From a virus, in the UHGV virus genome UHGV-0041589: a stretch of DNA of 20,735 nt; one strand, 5' to 3'. The position numbers and the translations under genes are program-made. The notes under the pieces were generated by a model. That model was not told the origin of the DNA. It ran no database searches and worked only from the letters and a program-made list of their open reading frames with translations. Positions 3,203-12,096 of the stretch are shown piece after piece (within the stretch, counting starts at the first letter, position 1; every line of letters begins with the position of its first letter).

Positions 3203-3523
3203 ATGGCTACTTTGTTAACATCAGGGTTAACTGTTCCGGAGTATTACAAAAATGGTGGAGTGCTCGACTTTGAACTGGATGCTTTAGAGGTGGGCGGGAA
3301 TAGCACTGATTTTGAAAATTACCCTTCACTGGTAAACATTCTTTCTAAAGGTTTCGAGCTTCCTGCTACATCTATGGTTAGCGATCCAAAATTTTTAGCC
3401 CCAATACTAGTTTATGGGGACTTCTGGACAAAACTTCATGCTTATACTTATGCCATGGGCGGCTCCGTTGTATATAAGCAATTACCTTCTGGACGGTATC
3501 ATGCCAGATGTGAGTGGCATTAA
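3203..3523 (+). CDS. Hypothetical protein (106 aa), AT-rich moron antisense to the surrounding operon
   Basis: Strong RBS (AGGAGG) 7-8 nt upstream of ATG 3203. Visibly lower GC than its neighbours. Diverges from the helicase start (3168) and overlaps the C5-MTase stop by 3-4 nt. No recognisable motifs. Confidence 0.6.
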   Translation: MATLLTSGLTVPEYYKNGGVLDFELDALEVGGNSTDFENYPSLVNILSKGFELPATSMVSDPKFLAPILVYGDFWTKLHAYTYAMGGSVVYKQLPSGRYHARCEWH

Positions 3524-4548
3524 ATAAGGTCGTATCCTGCGCATTCCATAAACGAGCGGATGAATGTTGCGGCAGCTGGTGCGACTATCGCGTTGCCGTA
3601 GGCGCGCAGTCGTCCCACTCTGGAGGTAATCCCATTAGCCAACGGGCATGTGCCGGATTCAACTGGCCGCCAGCGACCATCCCGGCAGAGGAGCCAGTCA
3701 GCACCATCCCAGCAGCCGTTAATCGTATTGGGCCGCAGATTCTCGCAGCGCCGCCGAGGGTCGTTCCCCGTTCGGTATGATTGGCCGCTGCGCCCTCGGC
3801 ACGAACTTGGTTGTTGTCGATCGTCGTCACTGTCGGCCATCCCGCTAATCTGGATAGTCCCGCTAAGGTTTCTAGACCGCGTTTTGTCTCCGGCTGTGGG
3901 TTTGTGTTGCAGGTTGGGGTGTACCACCCCGCTAGGTGAGCAAAATTCCGCAGGGAGCTGTGTAGCGTGTTGCCGGACGGTCGACGATCTCCAGACATCT
4001 TCCTCAATGCTATTGAGGCGCTTTCGCCACCGCTGTGATCGCTCGCCGCTGGCGTCGGCCACCCAATACGCTCTATCTCGGATATGCGGGGCACCGACGC
4101 CCGCAGCCGGAAACGGGACAAGCCCAAAGGCGTAGTCCACTGCTTCCACGTCAGTTTGTACAAGATCGAACCAGGCATTGACTCCCGCAACCTGTTCGCC
4201 AAATACCAGCTTAGGGCGTCGCTCGCTGATGAGGTGGAATAGTGCTGGCCATAGGTGCCGCTCGTCATCAAACCCAGCGCCTTTACCAGCCGAGCTGAAA
4301 GGCTGGCACGGGCAACTTCCTGTCCAGACCGGTTTGTTATCCGGCCATCCGGCCAGACGCAGAGCATAAGACCAGACGCCGATCCCGGCGAAGAAATGGC
4401 ACTGTGTGAATCCGCGCAAGTCGTCTGGTGCGACATCTTCGATACTCCTTTCATCAACTTCACCCGGGGCGATATGACCTGCAGCAATAAGGTTACGCAG
4501 CCATTGTGCTGCGTTAGGGTCTATTTCGTTGTAATAGGCTCCCCGCAC
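3520..4548 (-). CDS. DNA (cytosine-5)-methyltransferase
   Basis: Motif I FAGIG, catalytic motif [14 protein letters not shown]-like FGEQV, C-terminal AYGNAIV. Arg-rich central variable region consistent with a target-recognition domain. Confidence 0.85.
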
Positions 4549-4817
4549 AATATCCCCTCCAGATTTTTGCTATCTAATACCACCACGGTAAAGCCCAACG
4601 CGCGCAGCCGTTCGTGCTCGCGTAACTGGTCAGGCCGTGGTGGTTTGCTTGGCGCTTTGCATTCGACAAAGACGATGCGACCGCCGGGTAGCAGGACAAT
4701 GCGATCCGGTACCGAGCGGCGACCGGGTGACACGAACTTAAAGGCGACCCCGCCAGCCTTTTTCACTTCGGCGACGAGGTGCTTTTCGATAAGGCTTTCA
4801 CGTTCGTAGGCCATCAT
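4521..4817 (-). CDS. VRR-NUC domain nuclease
   Basis: Start chosen at the internal ATGATG (4817..4812) because ATG 4817..4815 overlaps the upstream MTase stop TGA 4816..4814; the longer ORF to 4940 would overlap the MTase out of frame. Pattern VAFKFVSPGRRSVPDRIVLLPGGRIVFVECKAP...LREHE matches VRR-NUC. Confidence 0.75.
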   Translation of the reverse strand: MMAYERESLIEKHLVAEVKKAGGVAFKFVSPGRRSVPDRIVLLPGGRIVFVECKAPSKPPRPDQLREHERLRALGFTVVVLDSKNLEGILCGEPITTK

Positions 4818-5296
4818 TCCACACCTTTGACGAAAATAACCCAGTGGGTTTTGTCGGCTTTTCCGGTTCGTTGCCATATGGCCGGCTTCTCGTCGGTCAG
4901 CGCCAAGATATTGCTTACCGGGATCTGCGTTTCGTTCCATTTGAATATGAGTACACCGTGGGGCCGCAATACCCTGAATGCTTCGGCGAAGCCGTCGCGA
5001 AGATCATCGCGCCATGTTTCTTTGTTGAGCCGCCCGTACTTTTTCCTCATCCATGCGTTATCGCCGACGCGCTCGAGGTGCGGCGGATCGAAAACGACGA
5101 CAGGGAAAGTGTTATCGGCAAAGGGAAGGGCGCGGAAATCAGCTATAAGGTCCGGACTTATAACCAACTGGCGACCGTCGCAAAGCTCATGCTGCTCGGC
5201 GCGGATATCACTGAACACGGCGCGCTTGTCCTCCTTGTCGAACCAAAACATACGAGAGCCGCAGCACATGTCAAGAATGGTCTGCTCACAAGTCAT
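4814..5296 (-). CDS. DNA amino-methyltransferase (N6-adenine or N4-cytosine type; DPPH motif)
   Basis: 160 aa; SAM-binding motif I-like LDMCCGS followed by VVVFDPPH (motif IV). Motif order I then IV. Confidence 0.7.
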   Translation of the reverse strand: MTCEQTILDMCCGSRMFWFDKEDKRAVFSDIRAEQHELCDGRQLVISPDLIADFRALPFADNTFPVVVFDPPHLERVGDNAWMRKKYGRLNKETWRDDLRDGFAEAFRVLRPHGVLIFKWNETQIPVSNILALTDEKPAIWQRTGKADKTHWVIFVKGVE

Positions 5297-5507
5297 CGCT
5301 CACCGCCTTACGCTTTTCGCGCATGTTCTGCATCAGACAAAAATCAGACCGGCGTTCGCTCCAGTCCTGATTCAGTTCGTTACGTGACTGGCGGTTAGCC
5401 TTGGCCCAGACCTTCGCTGCCCGGTCATATTCGCCGGACTGCTCAAGGCGCAAGGCCTCCCTCGCAGCCCGGTAATAAAGCGGACTGTCCCGATATTTAA
5501 ATGACAT
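5286..5507 (-). CDS. Small protein (73 aa), possibly ANR-family-like small regulator
   Basis: Start at internal ATG 5507 with RBS AGGAG 8 nt upstream; the longer ORF to 5633 would overlap the upstream gene. AAKVWAKA...NELNQDWSERRSDFC resembles the ANR small-regulator pattern as I recall it; unverified. Confidence 0.5.
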   Translation of the reverse strand: MSFKYRDSPLYYRAAREALRLEQSGEYDRAAKVWAKANRQSRNELNQDWSERRSDFCLMQNMREKRKAVSDDL

Positions 5508-5512
5508 AGGGG

Positions 5513-5716
5513 TTACTCCTGCTTTGCTTCGATTGGGCGGATGCTGCTCAGCACCAGACGAGTGCGGACACCGACAGCACCACCGCGGCGGCCAGTGTCT
5601 TTGTAGTAATACTCTTTTGGGCCAGCCACCCACGTTGTCGCGTTTTGATGCAATTGCACCTGCTTTTCACCGGTGCGGGTAATAACCGTTCCGGTATGCG
5701 TTTTGATTACAGTCAT
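5513..5716 (-). CDS. Hypothetical protein (67 aa)
   Basis: ATG 5 nt after the PolA stop, AAGGA about 9 nt upstream; stop TAA 6 nt before the next start. Tight operon packing supports it being real. Confidence 0.5.
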   Translation of the reverse strand: MTVIKTHTGTVITRTGEKQVQLHQNATTWVAGPKEYYYKDTGRRGGAVGVRTRLVLSSIRPIEAKQE

Positions 5717-5721
5717 AGCGA

Positions 5722-7785
5722 TTAATCCTTACGGTAGTGGTACGCCTCAAAACCGCCAGCGTTCAGTGGGATATCGGGCGCCCATTCGGGGTTAGTGGAG
5801 AGAAGCGCGGAAAGCGCTTTATCGTTGAAATCTTCTGTGTCAGGTGCTTCGGTGATCACCTCGTCGTGTACCGTCAGCACAATGCTGTAACCGGCATCTT
5901 CGATAAGCGGCATGTTTCCGGCCAGAACGTCGCGGGCGGCCGCCTGGGTGACGTTCTCTACCAGCTTTCCGCCGTAGGTTTTGAGTCGTTGCCATTTACG
6001 CGAATAAGAGTTAACACCCATATAGGTGATATTCCCTTTTTCGATAACCGGAGAGGGGTAGCATACAGCGCGTCCGGATGGTAGCTGTATGCGCAGCCAC
6101 GCGCCATCGCGGCGGATTTTAAGATAACCGCAATACAATGTTTTTTGCGGTGTGGCGATTGCAGTGCGGACGGTGCGCTCCAGTTCGTACCAGAAATCGC
6201 AGGTCGCCGGGTGCGCCCTGCGCCACAGGCGCTTGAGCGAGTCACATGCGATGAATACACGCTCGGACAGGCCAAAGGTCGACTTACGTTTAACCGATTC
6301 GTTGTACCAGCTTTTCGCCTCGCGGATAACATCGCGGGGAATGTTTGGCAGTGCGGCGTTCGCCAGCTCGTCGAGATCGAGACCGTAAACCAGAGCAAAA
6401 GTGATGAAAGCCGATACACCACCTCCATAACCCAGACCGAGTTCCATGACTTTACCGATCTGACGCATGTGTTTATCAACATCATCTGGTGCAATATCGA
6501 AAGCTTTTGCATACGCCAGTTTATATAAGTCCGGACCCGTTCCGGCGTCGTACTCTCTGAATGCATTCAGTTTCCATTCTTCTCCCGCCAGCCATGCCAG
6601 CATACGGCCTTCAATGTTCGACAAGTCACTTACCACCAGTTTTTTGCCTGTTGGCGCGATAATGCAGCCACGTAACGCTGAACTGGTTAGTTCCATGATA
6701 TTGTCAAACAGCAGGTCTGCACATCCGGCTTTCAGTGCTTCGATGCCTTCGTCTATTTGTTCCTGTTTTAGTGAAGGGCGGGGAAGGTTCTGGGGCTGGA
6801 ATAGCCGTCCGGCCCAACGACCGGTACGTGACGCCCCGCAGAACTGTAGCGTACCGCGTAAGCGCCCGTCGTGGCTTACGCCTTTCATCAGTGCCTTGTA
6901 TTTACTGGTGCTGGTAGTACTGGCCTGCAGGCGGATAGCCAGCAGTTCTTTCACGGCAGATGGTAAATCGGGGTCGGCTATACGACGTTCCAGAGTACTG
7001 CGTTGCATGTCTGGTAGCTCCACACCGTAGGATTCAACGATGTGCTTAATCAACGCGTCCCGTTGTGTTGCTGCCTGCACTTCGCCATCAGTCATTTCCT
7101 GTGTACGCTTTGCCAGGCGCTTTTGCTCCTGGTCTACCGCTTCGATCGCAGCGCGCGCGAGTTGAATGTCCATGCAGACGCCCCGGTCGTTGATCTGCTG
7201 ATCACGATGCCAGAGCGCCAGTTCTGTCCCCTGATAATTCCACTTCGGCAGACGTTTATAGACTTCGCGCATTGCCTCGATATCCAGTCCGGCGTAAGCA
7301 ACAAAGCGCCGCCATTCTTCCGGGTGGGTTTTGCTGGTGGCCCGGCGCAGTTTGCTGTTTTTCGGGCGTGGCTTACAGAACAGCTGGATCAGCGCTTTAC
7401 CTTCTTTGTCCTTCGCTTTGTCTTGCGGGACGCCTAGTACTTCGCAGAGTTCCCCCAGAGACCCCGGGAGACCGTGCGCCAGCGCCTGCACCATTGTGTC
7501 GCGCCAACGTTCGACTGGCGGTGCCAGGCGCGGCATTGCATAACGCAGGACGGTGCGGTCGAAGTGAGAGTTATGAAAATAAAGCAGGGTTTCAGGGGCT
7601 GCGATTGCTTCGTATAAGCCGTGTGGAATACCACCACCGGCAGTGATATCCCACACGTTTACGGGCTCGTCGTTGATAGCCCATGCGAACAGCATCACTT
7701 CAACGCCTTCGGCATACGCATGGGTACCGTTCGTAATAGGGATTTCGCAATAGGTTTCTAGGTCACCCCATAGTATATTGGACAT
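5722..7785 (-). CDS. Family-A (Pol I-like) DNA polymerase with N-terminal 3'-5' exonuclease domain
   Basis: 687 aa; exo motif LWGDLETY near the N-terminus, motif [17 protein letters not shown], motif C LTVHDEV. Confidence 0.9.
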
Positions 7786-7841
7786 AAAATAACCTTGTGT
7801 GATATATGGTTATGTAGGTGTAAATAAACAAGGAGACGGCG

Positions 7842-8111
7842 GTGTTTAGCTTTGGTATCGGAATACTTTCATTGATAGGTATTATTGCTTTCCCCATTCT
7901 TTATATTTTAGGGAGAATAGTTCGGGCTGGTGGCGCATGGCTCGAACGTGAAGAAGGTCCTAAGGATCGTGTTCTTCCCAAAATTATAATTTTTGCGCTT
8001 ATTGGGTTCTTTCTTGGGTGTTTGGCTCAGCCTGTATGGGACAGCATTTCGGTATGTAGAGACTATGGCAATCCAATAGGGAAATGTCTTTTTAAATTCA
8101 ATGAATTTTAA
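7842..8111 (+). CDS. Small membrane protein (89 aa, two predicted TM helices), AT-rich accessory gene
   Basis: GTG start 5 nt after AGGAGA RBS (7831-7836). Two hydrophobic stretches (about residues 2-24 and 47-65), Cys-containing C-terminal tail. AT-rich codon usage. Opposite strand to the surrounding operon. Confidence 0.6.
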   Translation: MFSFGIGILSLIGIIAFPILYILGRIVRAGGAWLEREEGPKDRVLPKIIIFALIGFFLGCLAQPVWDSISVCRDYGNPIGKCLFKFNEF

Positions 8112-8178
8112 TTTTTAGTATTGCGGTAGGCTGGTTTGGATAACTATTTTCTTAAGCCAGCCTTTGTTATAAGAAATA

Positions 8179-8832
8179 TTAAGCATCTACCCCTTCGTCA
8201 GAAGGGAGGCCGATCATTTCGTTGAGAGTTTCGCGTCGTATAGCTGGCGGAAGCGGAGCAGATGGTGCATCGGCTGGCAGAAGTTCTTTAGCTTCAGGCC
8301 ACTCTTCCAGCAGGCGCTTAACTGTGCGCACTTTACTGAGTGCAGCGCTGACATTCTGTCGAATGTCTGACTCATCGCTCTGTATCTGCTCATAAAGTGT
8401 ATCAAACCCGTAAAACTCTGTAACTAGAGGGTCATTTGCCAGAAGGGTAAATTCCCCCGGCGCGATTTTGTGAATATGGTCTGGTGACCCTGATTCATAT
8501 CCTCGGTAGTTACCGTTGAAATAGACGGTAACCCGAGAACCTGCCAGATTCAGACACATGTAACACTCTTCCCTGATAATGTTATTGGCGGTTTTTAATG
8601 CTTCGGGGAATTTTGATACCAGTGTTTCTATTTTTTTTATATTTTTTAATATTTCAGCTTCTTTCTCTACGCCCCCGATAGCTGCAAGCCGAACACGTTC
8701 GGCCCATTCAACACGAGCAGCTCGTAGTGCTGATTTACGTTTGGGGATACCCGCTTTCTCAAGTGCGTTATTGATGATTTGAGTTTTAAGGTAATTAGTT
8801 AATACGGGCTGTGACATTATTCTTTCCCTCAT
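8179..8832 (-). CDS. Hypothetical protein (about 212-217 aa); start ambiguous (ATG 8832 or ATG 8817)
   Basis: Long ORF with lower GC than the core replication genes; Lys/Glu-rich helical N-terminal half, no recognisable catalytic motif. Both candidate ATGs have a GA-rich SD-like sequence upstream. Confidence 0.55.
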   Translation of the reverse strand: MRERIMSQPVLTNYLKTQIINNALEKAGIPKRKSALRAARVEWAERVRLAAIGGVEKEAEILKNIKKIETLVSKFPEALKTANNIIREECYMCLNLAGSRVTVYFNGNYRGYESGSPDHIHKIAPGEFTLLANDPLVTEFYGFDTLYEQIQSDESDIRQNVSAALSKVRTVKRLLEEWPEAKELLPADAPSAPLPPAIRRETLNEMIGLPSDEGVDA

Positions 8833-8868
8833 GAGATCCCCCAGCACGCAGCTGGGGGATGAATATTT

Positions 8869-9417
8869 TTAAATTAGTGCTTCAGCATCAGCACCTTCGC
8901 TGATATCGTCGAAATCGTCAGCGCTTGCCACTCCGCCGCCAGCGAATGCATCGCCGTCTCGCAGGAACTGGACTCCGCCGAGTGAGGCATTAATGCGTTT
9001 ACCGAAATTATTGTCCTGTGCCCAGATATCGATAACGGCGTTTACATAGCACCCTGCATAGGGACGTCCATCAGCCTGAATTAGTGGCGAACGATCGCGA
9101 TCAAGAACAGCTGGGCGCGCTTTGTTAGCAGCGTTCAGGAAGAAATTGCCGGGAAAGCCTTCATACTCTGCTTTTTCATCACCATCATGCAGGCACAGAT
9201 TGAGTTTTTTCTCCAGCTGGTTATAAATGGACTCCCACTTCTCCCCCCATTTTTCCTTCGCTACCTGCTTCATAGCTTTACGGATTTCTTCCAGTTGTGG
9301 GTGTTTGGGAGACATTAAAAATACTGCGGAGAAACGCGGATCGCCTTCGCCGTTTACAGTTTTAGCTTCAAACAGAGACGGGAAGGCCAGACGAACATTG
9401 TTCAGCTTCAGTTTCAT
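8869..9417 (-). CDS. DUF2815-like protein (putative phage ssDNA-binding protein) with acidic SSB-like C-terminal tail
   Basis: 182 aa; N-terminus MKLKLNNVRLAFPSLFEAK; C-terminus DDFDDISEGADAEALI. AAGGA RBS 9 nt upstream. Stop is 13 nt after the DUF2800 gene. Confidence 0.7.
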   Translation of the reverse strand: MKLKLNNVRLAFPSLFEAKTVNGEGDPRFSAVFLMSPKHPQLEEIRKAMKQVAKEKWGEKWESIYNQLEKKLNLCLHDGDEKAEYEGFPGNFFLNAANKARPAVLDRDRSPLIQADGRPYAGCYVNAVIDIWAQDNNFGKRINASLGGVQFLRDGDAFAGGGVASADDFDDISEGADAEALI

Positions 9418-9432
9418 GGGGATTTCCTTAAA

Positions 9433-10734
9433 TCAGATGAGGTCTGCGGTTAGCGTATCGTCGGATACGTCGTCGAAATCATTTACAGGGTTGATATTGA
9501 GTGCGGGGCGTGGGTCTGACTCGGGAACGACGGTGGGTTTACCATCAGCTCGTGTTATCAGTGCCTCGACTTTTGACCAACGGCGCGGACTGGCCTTTTT
9601 GATAAGTTTTTCGGCTTTTGTGGGACTAATAAGTTTAAAGTCGAATACTTCTTCAGTTTTGTACCTGAACTGGTCCTTCAGAAGTGCGCGAGCTGCCTCT
9701 TCATCACTCCAGGCCCGGTTACCTTGTTTTCCTGTTACCAGTTTAAACCCCGGTACCGGATGTCCGGCATTGAGTTCATTGTGAACCCGGTCCCGTACTG
9801 CCTTTAGCCAGGACTCAATAAAGTCGGTCTGGCTATAGATCTCCGCAAGCTGCTCAATGGTTAACAGAGGTACACGTGCGCTGGCATTGGTGATTATTTC
9901 GCTGACAGGCTTTGTCAGATCTTCAAAGTCGCTGGCCGCTGTTTGTAAATGCTGCATTTTCTGGGCAGTGCAAATAGCTTTTGCTTTACAGAAGCGGCAC
10001 TGTTTTTCTCCAGGTATGAAGTTTTCCAGCGGTAGTGTCTCAATGCCTTCGCATTCAGCAATATTGAGAACAAGGATCGCACTGGTTGCGGCCTCCTGTG
10101 CCCGTTCACCGAACGCCTGGAGCTCTTCCACCGTCAGAGCCCACTCTGAAACGTGGTTAAGCCGCGGCTGGTGAATAAATAATCTTACAGTCTCAAAGTC
10201 ATACAGCATGCTGAATTGTTCGAGCGCACCCAGAGCATACAGTTGTAGTTGCTCATTTTGTTCTGCATCAATGCGGACGCCTTTGCCATATTTCAGGTCG
10301 TGGATTTGTAATTCGCTACCAGCAATGATTATGCTGTCGGCAGTTCCGAAAGATTCTTCCACACCCGTTATATGGGAGAAGTCGACACGCTGCTCGACCA
10401 GCAGCTCATTGCCCTGCGCCAGCGCCCAAACAGTGTCGACGTAACGACCAACGGCTTCGACCATTTCCTCATCTACCTGCGGGCCGGAAGTATCATCCGG
10501 GTGCTCAGCAAGAGGATAGGATCCAAGGAACATCGCGACGTTGCAACCTGCATAGTGCTCCGGGTGGCTCTGGCGGTTGCGCAGCACCTTTTCGGCAAGT
10601 GCATGCGCTGCAGTGCCCTCGATTGCAAAAGTTGTTTCTTTATCCGGTTGTGTGGCCTCCAGCGCCAGACTTCCTGGGCAGCGCATCCATCGATGCGCTG
10701 ATGATGGAGAAAGTTGTGCATGAACGTCTGGCAT
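9433..10734 (-). CDS. DUF2800-like PD-(D/E)XK nuclease (Cas4/RecB-like, Cys-cluster)
   Basis: 433 aa; N-terminal [16 protein letters not shown]-terminal [13 protein letters not shown] cysteine cluster (Cas4-like Fe-S arrangement), acidic tail [25 protein letters not shown] lies inside the upstream gene's 3' end. Confidence 0.8.
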
Positions 10735-10736
10735 GA

Positions 10737-11639
10737 TTAACCCTCCAGTGCTTTTTCAGCCAGGGTGATTACTTCAGCGAGATTTTCATCCGTTACTTCA
10801 CCAAGTTTCCTGGCTCCCTGTTTTTCCAGAATTGCAATAGCTTCTGCCCGGTAACCCCCTTTTGCTAACTGGAGGATCAACCCTTCAGCTTGTTTGCGTA
10901 GTGCCGCGAAATCAATTGTATGGTCATCTTTGGCGTCATTATTCTGGCTGGAATTTGCTGCGTCTCTGCGTGCAAATTCTTCCTGCAGCTGAAGGTACTC
11001 AACACGGTTGATCTCGATATGGCCTTTTTTAAGCATCTCGTTCAACTTGCGTAAGGTATGGAGTTCACTGGCTGCTGTGCCGGATACATTTTTGACGTAA
11101 AACGGCCCCGTGCGTTCTCCATCTTTGTTACTGGCCTTTTTCGGCTTAACTTCATCACGCCCATCTGCAGGTGCATCAAGTAGCTGCTCGGCAAAAGCAC
11201 GTCGCTCGCCGATGGTTGGCAGGTCGTCCCAGAACTTAAGGATGTTACGGGACAGGTCCAGGAGAGCAGGTTTAAGCAGCGCCCTGGCTCGTTTGACGCC
11301 CTGCAATGCGCTGTCGAGAGCATCAATCTGAACAACTCGTTTATCGCCTTCAGCATCACGGTAGGCAACAGCACGTTGCAGCATGTCTTCTGTGATAGGG
11401 GTGGCTACCGGGTAGAAACCAGCCAGTGCGATAACGTCGCTGAACTCCAGATCATCCAGTGTCATTGCCGCTGACATATTTTCAGTTTCAGTTGCTGTAT
11501 CCCGACATTCCTGCACTCGTGAAATCGTGTCAGGATGCATAACAATGCCTGATGCCATTGTGCGGATAAGACGTTCAAGCAGCGCATTATGTTGTGCCAG
11601 AAGTTGATTATTAAGTTCTAGACTGGTTTCTAAACTCAT
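10737..11639 (-). CDS. Hypothetical protein (300 aa), helical and coiled-coil-like
   Basis: Long ORF; start ATG overlaps the upstream stop (ATGA); stop TAA 2 nt before the DUF2800 start. No motif recognised. Confidence 0.65.
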
Positions 11640-11785
11640 ACTGTGGTCCTCGCTACAAGGAGAATGAAAGTGATGATCAGACCGAGCGCAGTGGCAACGG
11701 CCAGACCGGTCATCAAATCGAAGTTTTTACGGCGATAACGGAGAACATCGCGCCCCGTCAGTCGATGGATGTGTTCAGGTTTCAT
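11636..11785 (-). CDS. Small membrane protein (49-60 aa; start ambiguous among 11785, 11806, 11818)
   Basis: C-terminal hydrophobic segment LAVATALGLIITFILLVA. ATG 11785 has AAAGGAA 9 nt upstream; the others lack an SD. Stop overlaps the next gene start (ATGA). Confidence 0.45.
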   Translation of the reverse strand: MKPEHIHRLTGRDVLRYRRKNFDLMTGLAVATALGLIITFILLVARTTV

Positions 11786-11844
11786 CGGTTGTATTCCTTT
11801 TTTCATATCGGGGAGCACGCTGTTGCGAGTGCGCTTTCAGACAT

Positions 11845-11870
11845 AAAAAAGCCCGTCACGTGAGGCGGGC
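11845..11870 (-). terminator. Rho-independent terminator candidate (minus strand)
   Basis: Minus-strand RNA GCCCG-CC-UCAC/GUGA-CGGGC (5 bp + bulge + 2 bp, 4-nt loop) followed by UUUUUU (plus-strand A6 at 11845-11850). About 30 nt downstream of the zinc-ribbon ORF stop. Confidence 0.5.
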
Positions 11871-11901
11871 AAAGACTACACACAGCAATTACATGGATGA
11901 T

Positions 11902-12096
11902 TCAGTTGGTATTGTGCGTACGTGGTACCACAAGGTTGAAGCGGACACGCCAGTGCGTTGCAATGGTATGCAGGAAAGCACCACATCCAGGGCAGTGCTC
12001 ATAACATTCGTTGATTTGGTATCGTTTTGGCTTTGGTGTCAGAAGCTGTGTTTGGCAAGCAGGGCATTCACCTTTGAGCGGTTTATACGTTTTCAC
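11902..12096 (-). CDS. Small zinc-ribbon protein (64 aa, CxxC...CxxC)
   Basis: GTG start with GAGGAAA 6 nt upstream; Cys pairs CPAC and CPGC about 20 residues apart; terminator-like hairpin downstream. First gene after the candidate leftward promoter. Confidence 0.45.
   Translation of the reverse strand: MKTYKPLKGECPACQTQLLTPKPKRYQINECYEHCPGCGAFLHTIATHWRVRFNLVVPRTHNTN

Follow-up and report, generated by a model that had tools for sequence, protein, structure and literature searches.

X300, a multi-domain protein encoded beside the DUF2800 exonuclease of an APSE-like phage of Escherichia coli: a possible adaptor of the duf2800-gp2.5-polA module

The X300 gene and the architecture of its product

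The stretch of DNA analyzed here, hereafter the window, comprises the 20,735 nucleotides (nt) of UHGV virus genome UHGV-0041589 and carries, at 10737..11639 on the minus strand, an open reading frame (ORF) of 300 amino acids (aa), X300, which is a phrog_6784 gene and a homologue of P53 of Hamiltonella phage APSE-1. Directly downstream, on the same strand, lie genes for a DUF2800/PDDEXK_1 protein, a PD-(D/E)XK Cas4-like exonuclease (9433..10734; Pfam PF10926, 1e-109; phrog_69, 'exonuclease'), and for a Gp2.5/Enc34-type single-stranded DNA (ssDNA)-binding and annealing protein (8869..9417; Pfam PF10991, Enc34_ssDNA-bd, 2e-44; phrog_112, labelled 'Gp2.5-like ssDNA binding protein and ssDNA annealing protein'). 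A family-A DNA polymerase gene follows at 5722..7785, with NCBIfam PolA-type matches and an orthologue labelled 'DNA polymerase' in ON470582. A preliminary description of the locus had placed X300 in a recombination context, and this set of a DUF2800 nuclease, a Gp2.5-type ssDNA-binding protein (SSB) and a family-A polymerase on one strand bore that out; the neighbour it had called SSB-like was, by its Enc34_ssDNA-bd match, itself an SSB and annealase of the Gp2.5 family. The region was 99% identical at the protein level to Escherichia phage vB_EcoM-689R2 and had the same gene order as APSE-1 and Yersinia phage YeP5; the window phage is an APSE-like temperate phage of E. coli. The duf2800-gp2.5-polA module has been described as one without a separate ssb gene, in which Gp2.5 is the single-strand annealing protein (SSAP) (PMC8093625). 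A DUF2800 homologue was present in 1,658 of 50,697 phage records, and DUF2800-Gp2.5-PolA is among the commonest replication and recombination gene sets of tailed phages.

The X300 gene is packed closely between its neighbours. Its ATG overlaps the stop codon of a 60-aa ORF upstream (ATGA), 2 nt separate its stop codon from the ATG of the DUF2800 gene, and its last codons, GGAGGG, form the Shine-Dalgarno sequence of the DUF2800 gene; X300 is translationally coupled to the exonuclease gene. The 300-aa ORF, the gene order and the tight coupling reported in the preliminary description all stood, given the ATGA overlap, the 2-nt spacer and the Pfam matches of the neighbours.

X300 is a genuine gene under purifying selection. 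Over 217 pairs of homologous genes, the ratio of non-synonymous to synonymous substitution rates (dN/dS) was 0.19 overall, and by part of the protein it was 0.10-0.14 in the N, M and C domains, 0.26 in the I domain and at most 0.54 in the linkers. By profile comparison, X300 is a member of phrog_6784, the APSE P53-like family, as the phrog_6784 hidden Markov model (HMM) covered residues 1-300 with profile positions 1-298 of 298 (E 1.5e-179). Homologues formed 588 clusters at 90% identity, chiefly from enterobacterial prophages. Only 69 representatives of the family occurred among 1.8 billion clusters at 50% identity, and the family is therefore narrow. The protein had been called unannotated, which was only partly right: it was already included in phrog_6784, and a 99.3% identical 'uncharacterized protein' was already deposited for vB_EcoM-689R2.

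Alignments and an AlphaFold2 model built on 27 diverse family sequences divided X300, an acidic protein overall (isoelectric point, pI, 5.1), into five parts: an N helix, a disordered linker, and the M, I and C domains. The model had a mean predicted local distance difference test score (pLDDT) of 87.3 and a predicted template modelling score (pTM) of 0.47, and so low a pTM fits independent domains carried on flexible linkers. The preliminary description had spoken of a helical protein, and this was mostly correct, as the model was all-alpha except for one small beta-beta-alpha-beta-alpha mini-domain.

The N domain (residues 1-30; 11550..11639, minus strand, as are all parts of the gene) is an amphipathic helix of the pattern MSLExxLxxNNxLLxxxNxLLxxL, with hydrophobic residues at heptad-like spacing (3, 7, 10/11, 14, 21, 24 and 28). 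It was modelled as a helix over residues 3-29 at pLDDT 89-95, was conserved family-wide and had a dN/dS of 0.13. The spacing may be read from the sequence as that of a coiled coil, and the helix probably serves oligomerisation or partner binding. Linker 1 (residues 31-58; 11466..11549) was predicted to be disordered (pLDDT 44-62) and was variable, with 14-46% identity across homologues.

The M domain (residues 59-165; 11145..11465) is acidic (pI 4.6) and all-alpha, and carries the motif WDxLPGIxERRxFAE, with W137 and R146 nearly invariant and a dN/dS of 0.14. Modelled alone by AlphaFold2, it reached a pLDDT of 95.4 and a pTM of 0.87. A Foldseek search of the PDB with this domain gave no match at E<=1e-3 (best E=4.0, TM score <=0.33), and a profile search of PDB sequences gave nothing significant; the predicted fold is apparently new. 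Linker 2 (residues 166-175; 11115..11144) is Lys/Pro-rich and basic (VKPKK...), and K/A/P-rich linkers resembling it were found in small homologues of other phages.

The I domain (residues 176-233; 10941..11114) is the beta-beta-alpha-beta-alpha mini-domain, with the motif GPFY...EIxKVEYLQLxEE, a basic pI of 9.3 and a model pLDDT of 92-97. It follows M in X300 and precedes M in the homologues P0140, P0141, P0143 and P0166, and neither APSE P53 nor the YeP5 protein has it; judged from these arrangements, it is a mobile cassette. It occurred in two allelic types, with a bimodal identity of either 76-81% or 36-38%. The C domain (residues 243-300; 10740..10913), a three-helix domain, was the most conserved part of the protein, with 84-91% identity across homologues, comparable to the conservation of the DUF2800 nuclease, and a dN/dS of 0.10.

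Linkage to the nuclease and the wider protein family

The preliminary description had named homologues consistently encoded without the nuclease as evidence that would speak against its proposal, and the opposite was found: DUF2800 lay directly downstream of the X300 homologue in all 80 of the 80 IMG/VR loci recovered with the family. It also lay directly downstream in APSE-1, in YeP5 and in homologues of 23-25% identity. About 70 loci retained the 2-nt junction between the two genes. In nine loci, a 171-aa homing endonuclease of the NUMOD4/HNH type was inserted exactly in the junction (L031, 1677-2192; also L025, L032, L033, L037, L041, L049, L057 and L080), and both flanking genes were intact. 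The conserved junction and the intact genes around the homing endonuclease argue for a functional tie.

One further locus (L084; IMG/VR UViG_3300009092_000436) encoded a chimeric exonuclease at 6882-8237, downstream of the X300 homologue, in which a RecE-type domain (GIYFDISNEDYHAG...) stood in place of the DUF2800 catalytic domain as an in-frame fusion. The C-terminal ~155 residues of DUF2800 were retained, together with the acidic tail, the X300 gene and the 2-nt junction. This chimera suggests that the C-terminal region of DUF2800 is a separable, module-specific part of the nuclease.

Across related loci, no protein of the module was less conserved than X300, with 48-77% identity compared with 77-94% for its module neighbours; APSE P53 shows this pattern too (PMC8579659). 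An arms race as the driver of fast evolution was considered and rejected, as the disordered linkers and the exchange of I-domain alleles accounted for most of the low identity, and the folded parts had a dN/dS below 0.3.

The C domain reached beyond the family. A C-domain HMM was run on ten diverse phage loci with DUF2800, comprising 817 stop-to-stop ORFs. All nine best matches were to an ORF that either immediately preceded DUF2800 or opened its operon, and the match always fell at the C-terminal end of the protein. The matches comprised Streptococcus Javan181_0005 (E 4.7e-10), Chi_044 (7e-5), Staphylococcus UYE96131 (1.3e-4), Xfas53 gp11 (1.6e-4), a Dhillonvirus protein (bov11C2; 0.06), Ruegeria phage gp79 (0.13) and weak matches to Pseudomonas, Jerseyvirus and Kagunavirus proteins with E above 1; the Jerseyvirus, Kagunavirus and UF_RH7 matches (E>1) rested on position. 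In a second locus set, the HMM matched gp33 of Bacillus phage Wes44 (E 3.5e-11) and a 51-aa Bacteroides phage protein (1e-3). Wes44 gp33 (L109, 3100-3978), a 292-aa protein encoded upstream of DUF2800, combines an N helix with three C domains in tandem; here the family was enlarged by a different route.

Comparisons among families and of structures pointed in the same direction. Reciprocal weak matches linked phrog_6784 with phrogs 408, 3709, 3127, 7721, 19269, 22695, 18562, 5053 and 36047, all of 'unknown function'; X300 matched phrog_408 at 3.3e-5, and Javan181_0005 matched phrog_6784 at 4.7e-4. Foldseek matches of probability 1.0 in BFVD were to small proteins of phages AH2, eiAU, PaMx28, RDJL phi2 and others, with a root-mean-square deviation of 0.6-5 A over ~50-75 columns, and these proteins belong to phages known to carry the duf2800-gp2.5-polA module. 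Pfam and NCBIfam held no model for the small upstream proteins, and a C-domain profile search for homologues brought up just 34 proteins, all of them short, without an informative fusion among them.

The small upstream proteins shared a common layout of an N amphipathic helix, a low-complexity linker rich in K/A/P/E/T and a C domain with the pattern AKxGY[KR]xE...FGAxKLSE, which X300 has as well. This layout and the operon position of X300 were found in phrog_408 (Javan181_0005 and UYE96131 of Staphylococcus phage phiSa2wa), phrog_7721 (Chi_044), phrog_3127 (Jerseyvirus and Dhillonvirus), phrog_19269 (Xfas53 gp11) and phrog_36047 (Wes44 gp33). Unlike X300, the small proteins have no M or I domain and are 51-182 aa long (292 aa for Wes44 gp33), and they resemble X300 over only ~50 residues, with several of the resemblances individually weak. 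As for those weak matches outside the family, only the consistency of their position makes them persuasive. Closer to X300, APSE-1 P53 (NP_051014) and the YeP5 protein (QCW23548) have its N helix, M and C domains and its place before DUF2800, but they lack the I domain, have other linkers and are ~37-38% identical to it overall; in APSE-1 the DUF2800 exonuclease is P51 and the Gp2.5-like SSB is P50, in the same order as in the window. Given the shared layout, X300 is the APSE-lineage member of a superfamily of helix-linker-C-domain proteins, with M and I inserted in the linker. Proteins of this kind are widespread among tailed phages, at the head of the module. Phages of Proteobacteria, Firmicutes and Bacteroidetes, with Gram-negative and Gram-positive hosts alike, encoded a C-domain protein immediately before DUF2800. 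An N+C-only protein (P0189) directly upstream of DUF2800 was present within the APSE-like group itself.

Two other proteins in the X300-like upstream position, p0031 of Vibrio phage 104E43.1 (L107, 2816-3706) and a protein of Proteus phage 2207-N35 (L110, 3303-3989), both contained a G[YF]xWDERIH...GxW motif and matched only the unknown-function PHROGs 11133, 29341 and 27827. Their C-terminal parts resembled the C domain by eye. In GenBank they are labelled 'pyruvate dehydrogenase E1 component' and 'recombinase', respectively, and both labels look unsupported.

The M and I domains were also found together away from the module. P0187 (L006, 6001-7503) is a 500-aa protein that joins a YdfE-like N-terminal domain, an M+I cassette and a YdfE_C domain (Pfam), and differs from X300 in its N- and C-terminal domains and in having no three-helix C domain. 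An M-domain HMM built without P0187 scored it at 21.4 bits, compared with 6.8 bits for the best of 900 shuffles, and its I domain was 38% identical over 86 residues. The gene adjoins xis/int at the distal end of the early-left operon of a lambdoid prophage, whose replication genes are of the lambda O/P type and which lacks a DUF2800 module; the cassette is therefore portable and not confined to a nuclease context. The N-terminal part of P0187 weakly matched the 'exonuclease' families phrog_2489 and phrog_2082. A homologous-protein search with this part returned nothing, and megablast of the gene against E. coli genomes gave no match. A link between the M domain and the N-terminal regions of RecE-type exonucleases was rejected, as P0187 had no similarity to E. 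coli RecE, the M-domain HMM matched neither E. coli RecE nor K-12 YdfE, and tblastn of the N-terminal part against phages gave only the I domain of the window phage.

Candidate roles of X300

We tentatively favour the reading that X300 is a non-enzymatic, flexible multi-domain accessory protein, an adaptor or scaffold of the duf2800-gp2.5-polA module and not an annealase, and we put its chance of being right at a little under even. It starts from a real gene with a defined domain architecture, homology to the small upstream proteins, synteny and coupling with DUF2800, and no SSAP match. We infer both the partner and every step of the mechanism. The N helix would serve in oligomerisation or docking, the basic linker and the I domain could make loose contact with DNA, and the conserved C domain would hold a partner from the module, which may be the resection nuclease, the Gp2.5-like SSB/annealase or the polymerase. 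By doing so, X300 would help to organise end resection and recombination-dependent replication. In the APSE lineage, the linker has gained two folded units, M and I, which would be an added payload, possibly directed at a host factor. The L084 chimera favours an adaptor, as the catalytic domain of the nuclease had been swapped and yet X300, the junction and the C-terminal region of DUF2800 were kept.

Several points weigh against this role. In one locus (L009), a minimal homologue consisting of N helix and C domain (P0180) adjoined SSB and PolA, and no DUF2800 was present within the 12.3 kb of locus sequence; the nuclease therefore cannot be the sole partner. The new nuclease cofactor that the preliminary description had offered as one option may still hold, weakened by this locus. 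Many C-domain matches outside the family were individually weak (E 1e-3 to above 1). The presence of M+I in P0187, where there is no module, suggests that the cassette acts on something general or host-derived, and conserved gene order in an early operon can equally reflect shared regulation rather than physical partnership. The L009 locus had also raised the idea that the M domain was lost together with DUF2800, which P0189, of N+C domains only and yet located before DUF2800, contradicted.

The proposal of the preliminary description, that X300 is a divergent SSAP forming a lambda-Red-like trio with the exonuclease and the SSB, had position in its favour, directly before a 5'-3'-type PD-(D/E)XK nuclease and an SSB, and this genomic setting, a gene beside a 5'-3' exonuclease in an early operon, is the only likeness between X300 and Redbeta/RecT, Erf, Rad52/Sak, Sak3 and Sak4. 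The 'recombinase' label on the same-position protein of Proteus phage 2207-N35 would add to it, but that protein matches only PHROGs of unknown function. None of the 27 diverse family members matched the SSAP families compared at E<=1, namely Redbeta/RecT (PF03837), Erf (PF04404), Rad52/Sak (PF04098), Sak3/DUF1071 (PF06378), the Gp2.5-type PF10991 and Sak4 (PF13479), and X300 itself had no Pfam match at E<=0.1 and no match in NCBIfam or PADLOC. Neither a Gp2.5-type OB fold nor a Sak4-type P-loop was indicated by any HMM match of X300, and PF10991 matched the neighbour at 8869-9417 instead. Searches of PDB sequences and profiles with the family were empty. The structure prediction and Foldseek comparison with annealase folds that had been proposed for X300 returned a fold unrelated to annealases: the whole model had no PDB match at E<=1e-3 (best E 1.5), and no Redbeta, RecT or Rad52 fold was found with the confident X300 and M-domain models. 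Structures of Rad52, Redbeta and RecT have a conserved beta-beta-beta-alpha ssDNA-binding core fold. The X300 models are helical except for the 58-residue beta-beta-alpha-beta-alpha unit, a secondary-structure class that does not fit the beta-rich cores of SSAPs, and the smallest family members, at only 104-126 aa, were judged too small for such a core. The module already has an annealase in its Gp2.5-like protein. We consider the SSAP reading largely refuted and highly improbable, and rejected it on the results of the HMM, PDB-sequence and fold searches.

Three other explanations leave the annealase aside. The gam gene in lambda and the abc gene in P22 adjoin recombination genes in the early-left operon, and from a comparable position X300 could be host-directed, either shielding the ends of phage DNA or inactivating a nuclease or defence system of the host. 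It would then be functionally analogous to lambda Gam or P22 Abc, and M+I would be the payload that binds the host target. The acidity of X300 and of its M domain, its low conservation within the module, shared by APSE P53 (PMC8579659), the two very different I-domain alleles and the portability of M+I to a lambdoid prophage without the module would all suit such a protein. However, the divergence lies mostly in the disordered linkers, with the folded domains at a dN/dS of 0.10-0.26; X300 had no Pfam, PHROG, PDB-sequence or Foldseek PDB match to lambda Gam, Mu Gam or P22 Abc, no sequence or fold similarity to any solved inhibitor and no PADLOC match; and an N+C core shared by phages of very different hosts, lytic as well as temperate, is more in keeping with a partner within the phage than with a host target. 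We regard a host-directed role as unlikely. A role outside DNA metabolism, in which X300 is an early-operon passenger concerned with regulation, host takeover or lysogeny control and its linkage to DUF2800 reflects only operon structure, appeared unlikely to about the same degree. It draws on the M+I cassette in the YdfE-like protein beside xis/int and on the small accessory genes that adjoin X300 upstream (the 60-aa membrane protein, a zinc-ribbon ORF and an RprA-like small RNA), and it has to contend with a C-domain protein kept before DUF2800 in phages of three bacterial phyla whose other early genes differ, with a 2-nt junction that is precisely conserved and with a homing endonuclease that entered this junction and left both genes intact. 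The tie could instead be to replication, with X300 as an initiation or replisome-loading factor for the VapE-type primase-helicase and PolA, either an origin-binding 'organiser' or a tether of helicase or polymerase, and not a nuclease partner. The minimal homologue that stays beside SSB, PolA and primase once DUF2800 is lost fits this, as does the position that the gene has in many phages, where it comes first in the replication operon and is oriented divergently to the primase-helicase gene; the Lys-rich linkers would be compatible with DNA binding. No iterons or other origin-like repeats were found in or near the X300 gene, however, and a replication origin inside the gene was rejected on that ground; X300 contains no helix-turn-helix (HTH) or other known DNA-binding domain, and its stop/start coupling is to the nuclease and not to the polymerase or primase. 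A replisome factor is, in our view, rather improbable.

Returning to the adaptor reading, its broadest form would make the upstream proteins an undescribed fourth core component of the module, a helix-linker-three-helix adaptor that physically links the nuclease, the SSB-annealase or both with DNA ends or the replisome. Among these adaptors X300 would be the most elaborate, with an M domain of apparently new fold and a mobile mini-domain that also enters unrelated prophage proteins and may engage a host factor. We hold this broader claim to be possible but doubtful. X300 as a 'hypothetical' protein (phrog_6784), APSE P53, listed as 'Phage protein' (PMC8579659), and the module itself are known already. 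In the literature examined, we found no description of a conserved upstream component with its three-part architecture, nor of the domain-expanded form of X300 or an M domain lacking structural relatives. A conserved upstream component is likewise absent from the published account of the module (PMC8093625); X300 would be such a component in an expanded form.

If X300 is a true subunit of the module, reconstitution for recombineering, phage replication or defence-trigger studies would need the upstream protein, and annotation pipelines could name ~12 PHROGs of 'unknown function'. The M domain would add a confident predicted structure without a solved relative. If X300 is dispensable, it is simply one more hypothetical early gene.

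Neighbouring genes, acidic tails and an RprA-like RNA

The window carries the intact module of DUF2800, Gp2.5-like SSB and PolA, together with a primase-helicase and an SNF2 helicase. Between SSB and PolA, a nucleotide-modification-associated gene (Nmad5; 8179-8847, minus strand) was present in only a minority of related loci, and downstream of PolA (3520-5633, minus strand) were Dcm-like and other methyltransferase-like ORFs and an ANR-family regulator. The Nmad5 gene and the methyltransferase-like and ANR genes after PolA are variable cargo within the replication operon. The DUF2800 nuclease has been reported to trigger a retron defence system (bioRxiv 10.64898/2026.07.14.737667).

The Gp2.5-like SSB occurred in two allelic forms, ~92% and ~58% identical to that of the window (L063, L065-L069, L086, L091 and L092), which assorted independently of the nuclease, the polymerase and X300. 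The DUF2800 nuclease (9433-9480) and the SSB (8869-8916; ...ADDFDDISEGADAEALI) end in near-identical acidic C-terminal tails. Such tails also end many of the small upstream proteins of other phages; X300 is without one. In T7, the acidic tails of gp2.5 and gp4 compete for the polymerase, and the nuclease and SSB tails here recall them. An acidic C-terminal SSB tail is common to the T7 gp2.5-gp5-gp6 system and the window, where the nuclease has one as well.

Upstream of X300, the 60-aa ORF (11636..11818, minus strand; phrog_11981), whose stop codon overlaps the X300 start, encodes a C-terminal transmembrane helix and was kept in this position in most related loci. Further upstream in the window are a cI-like S24 repressor, a Cro-like HTH protein and the VapE-type primase-helicase. 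An RprA-like small RNA was found just upstream of the operon (11841-11950, minus strand), with a full-model match to Rfam RF00034 (E 1.3e-5) at a score of 50.5 bits, which is under the gathering score of 70. Its 5' part is overlapped by a 64-aa zinc-ribbon ORF of the form CxxC...CxxC (11902-12096, minus strand). The 3' half of the RNA, containing core and terminator (AAUUGCUGUGUGUAGUCUUUGCCCG...CGGGCUUUUUU), was almost identical to RprA, whereas the 5' half had diverged, and the exact 25-nt RprA core stood at the same position in 29 related loci.

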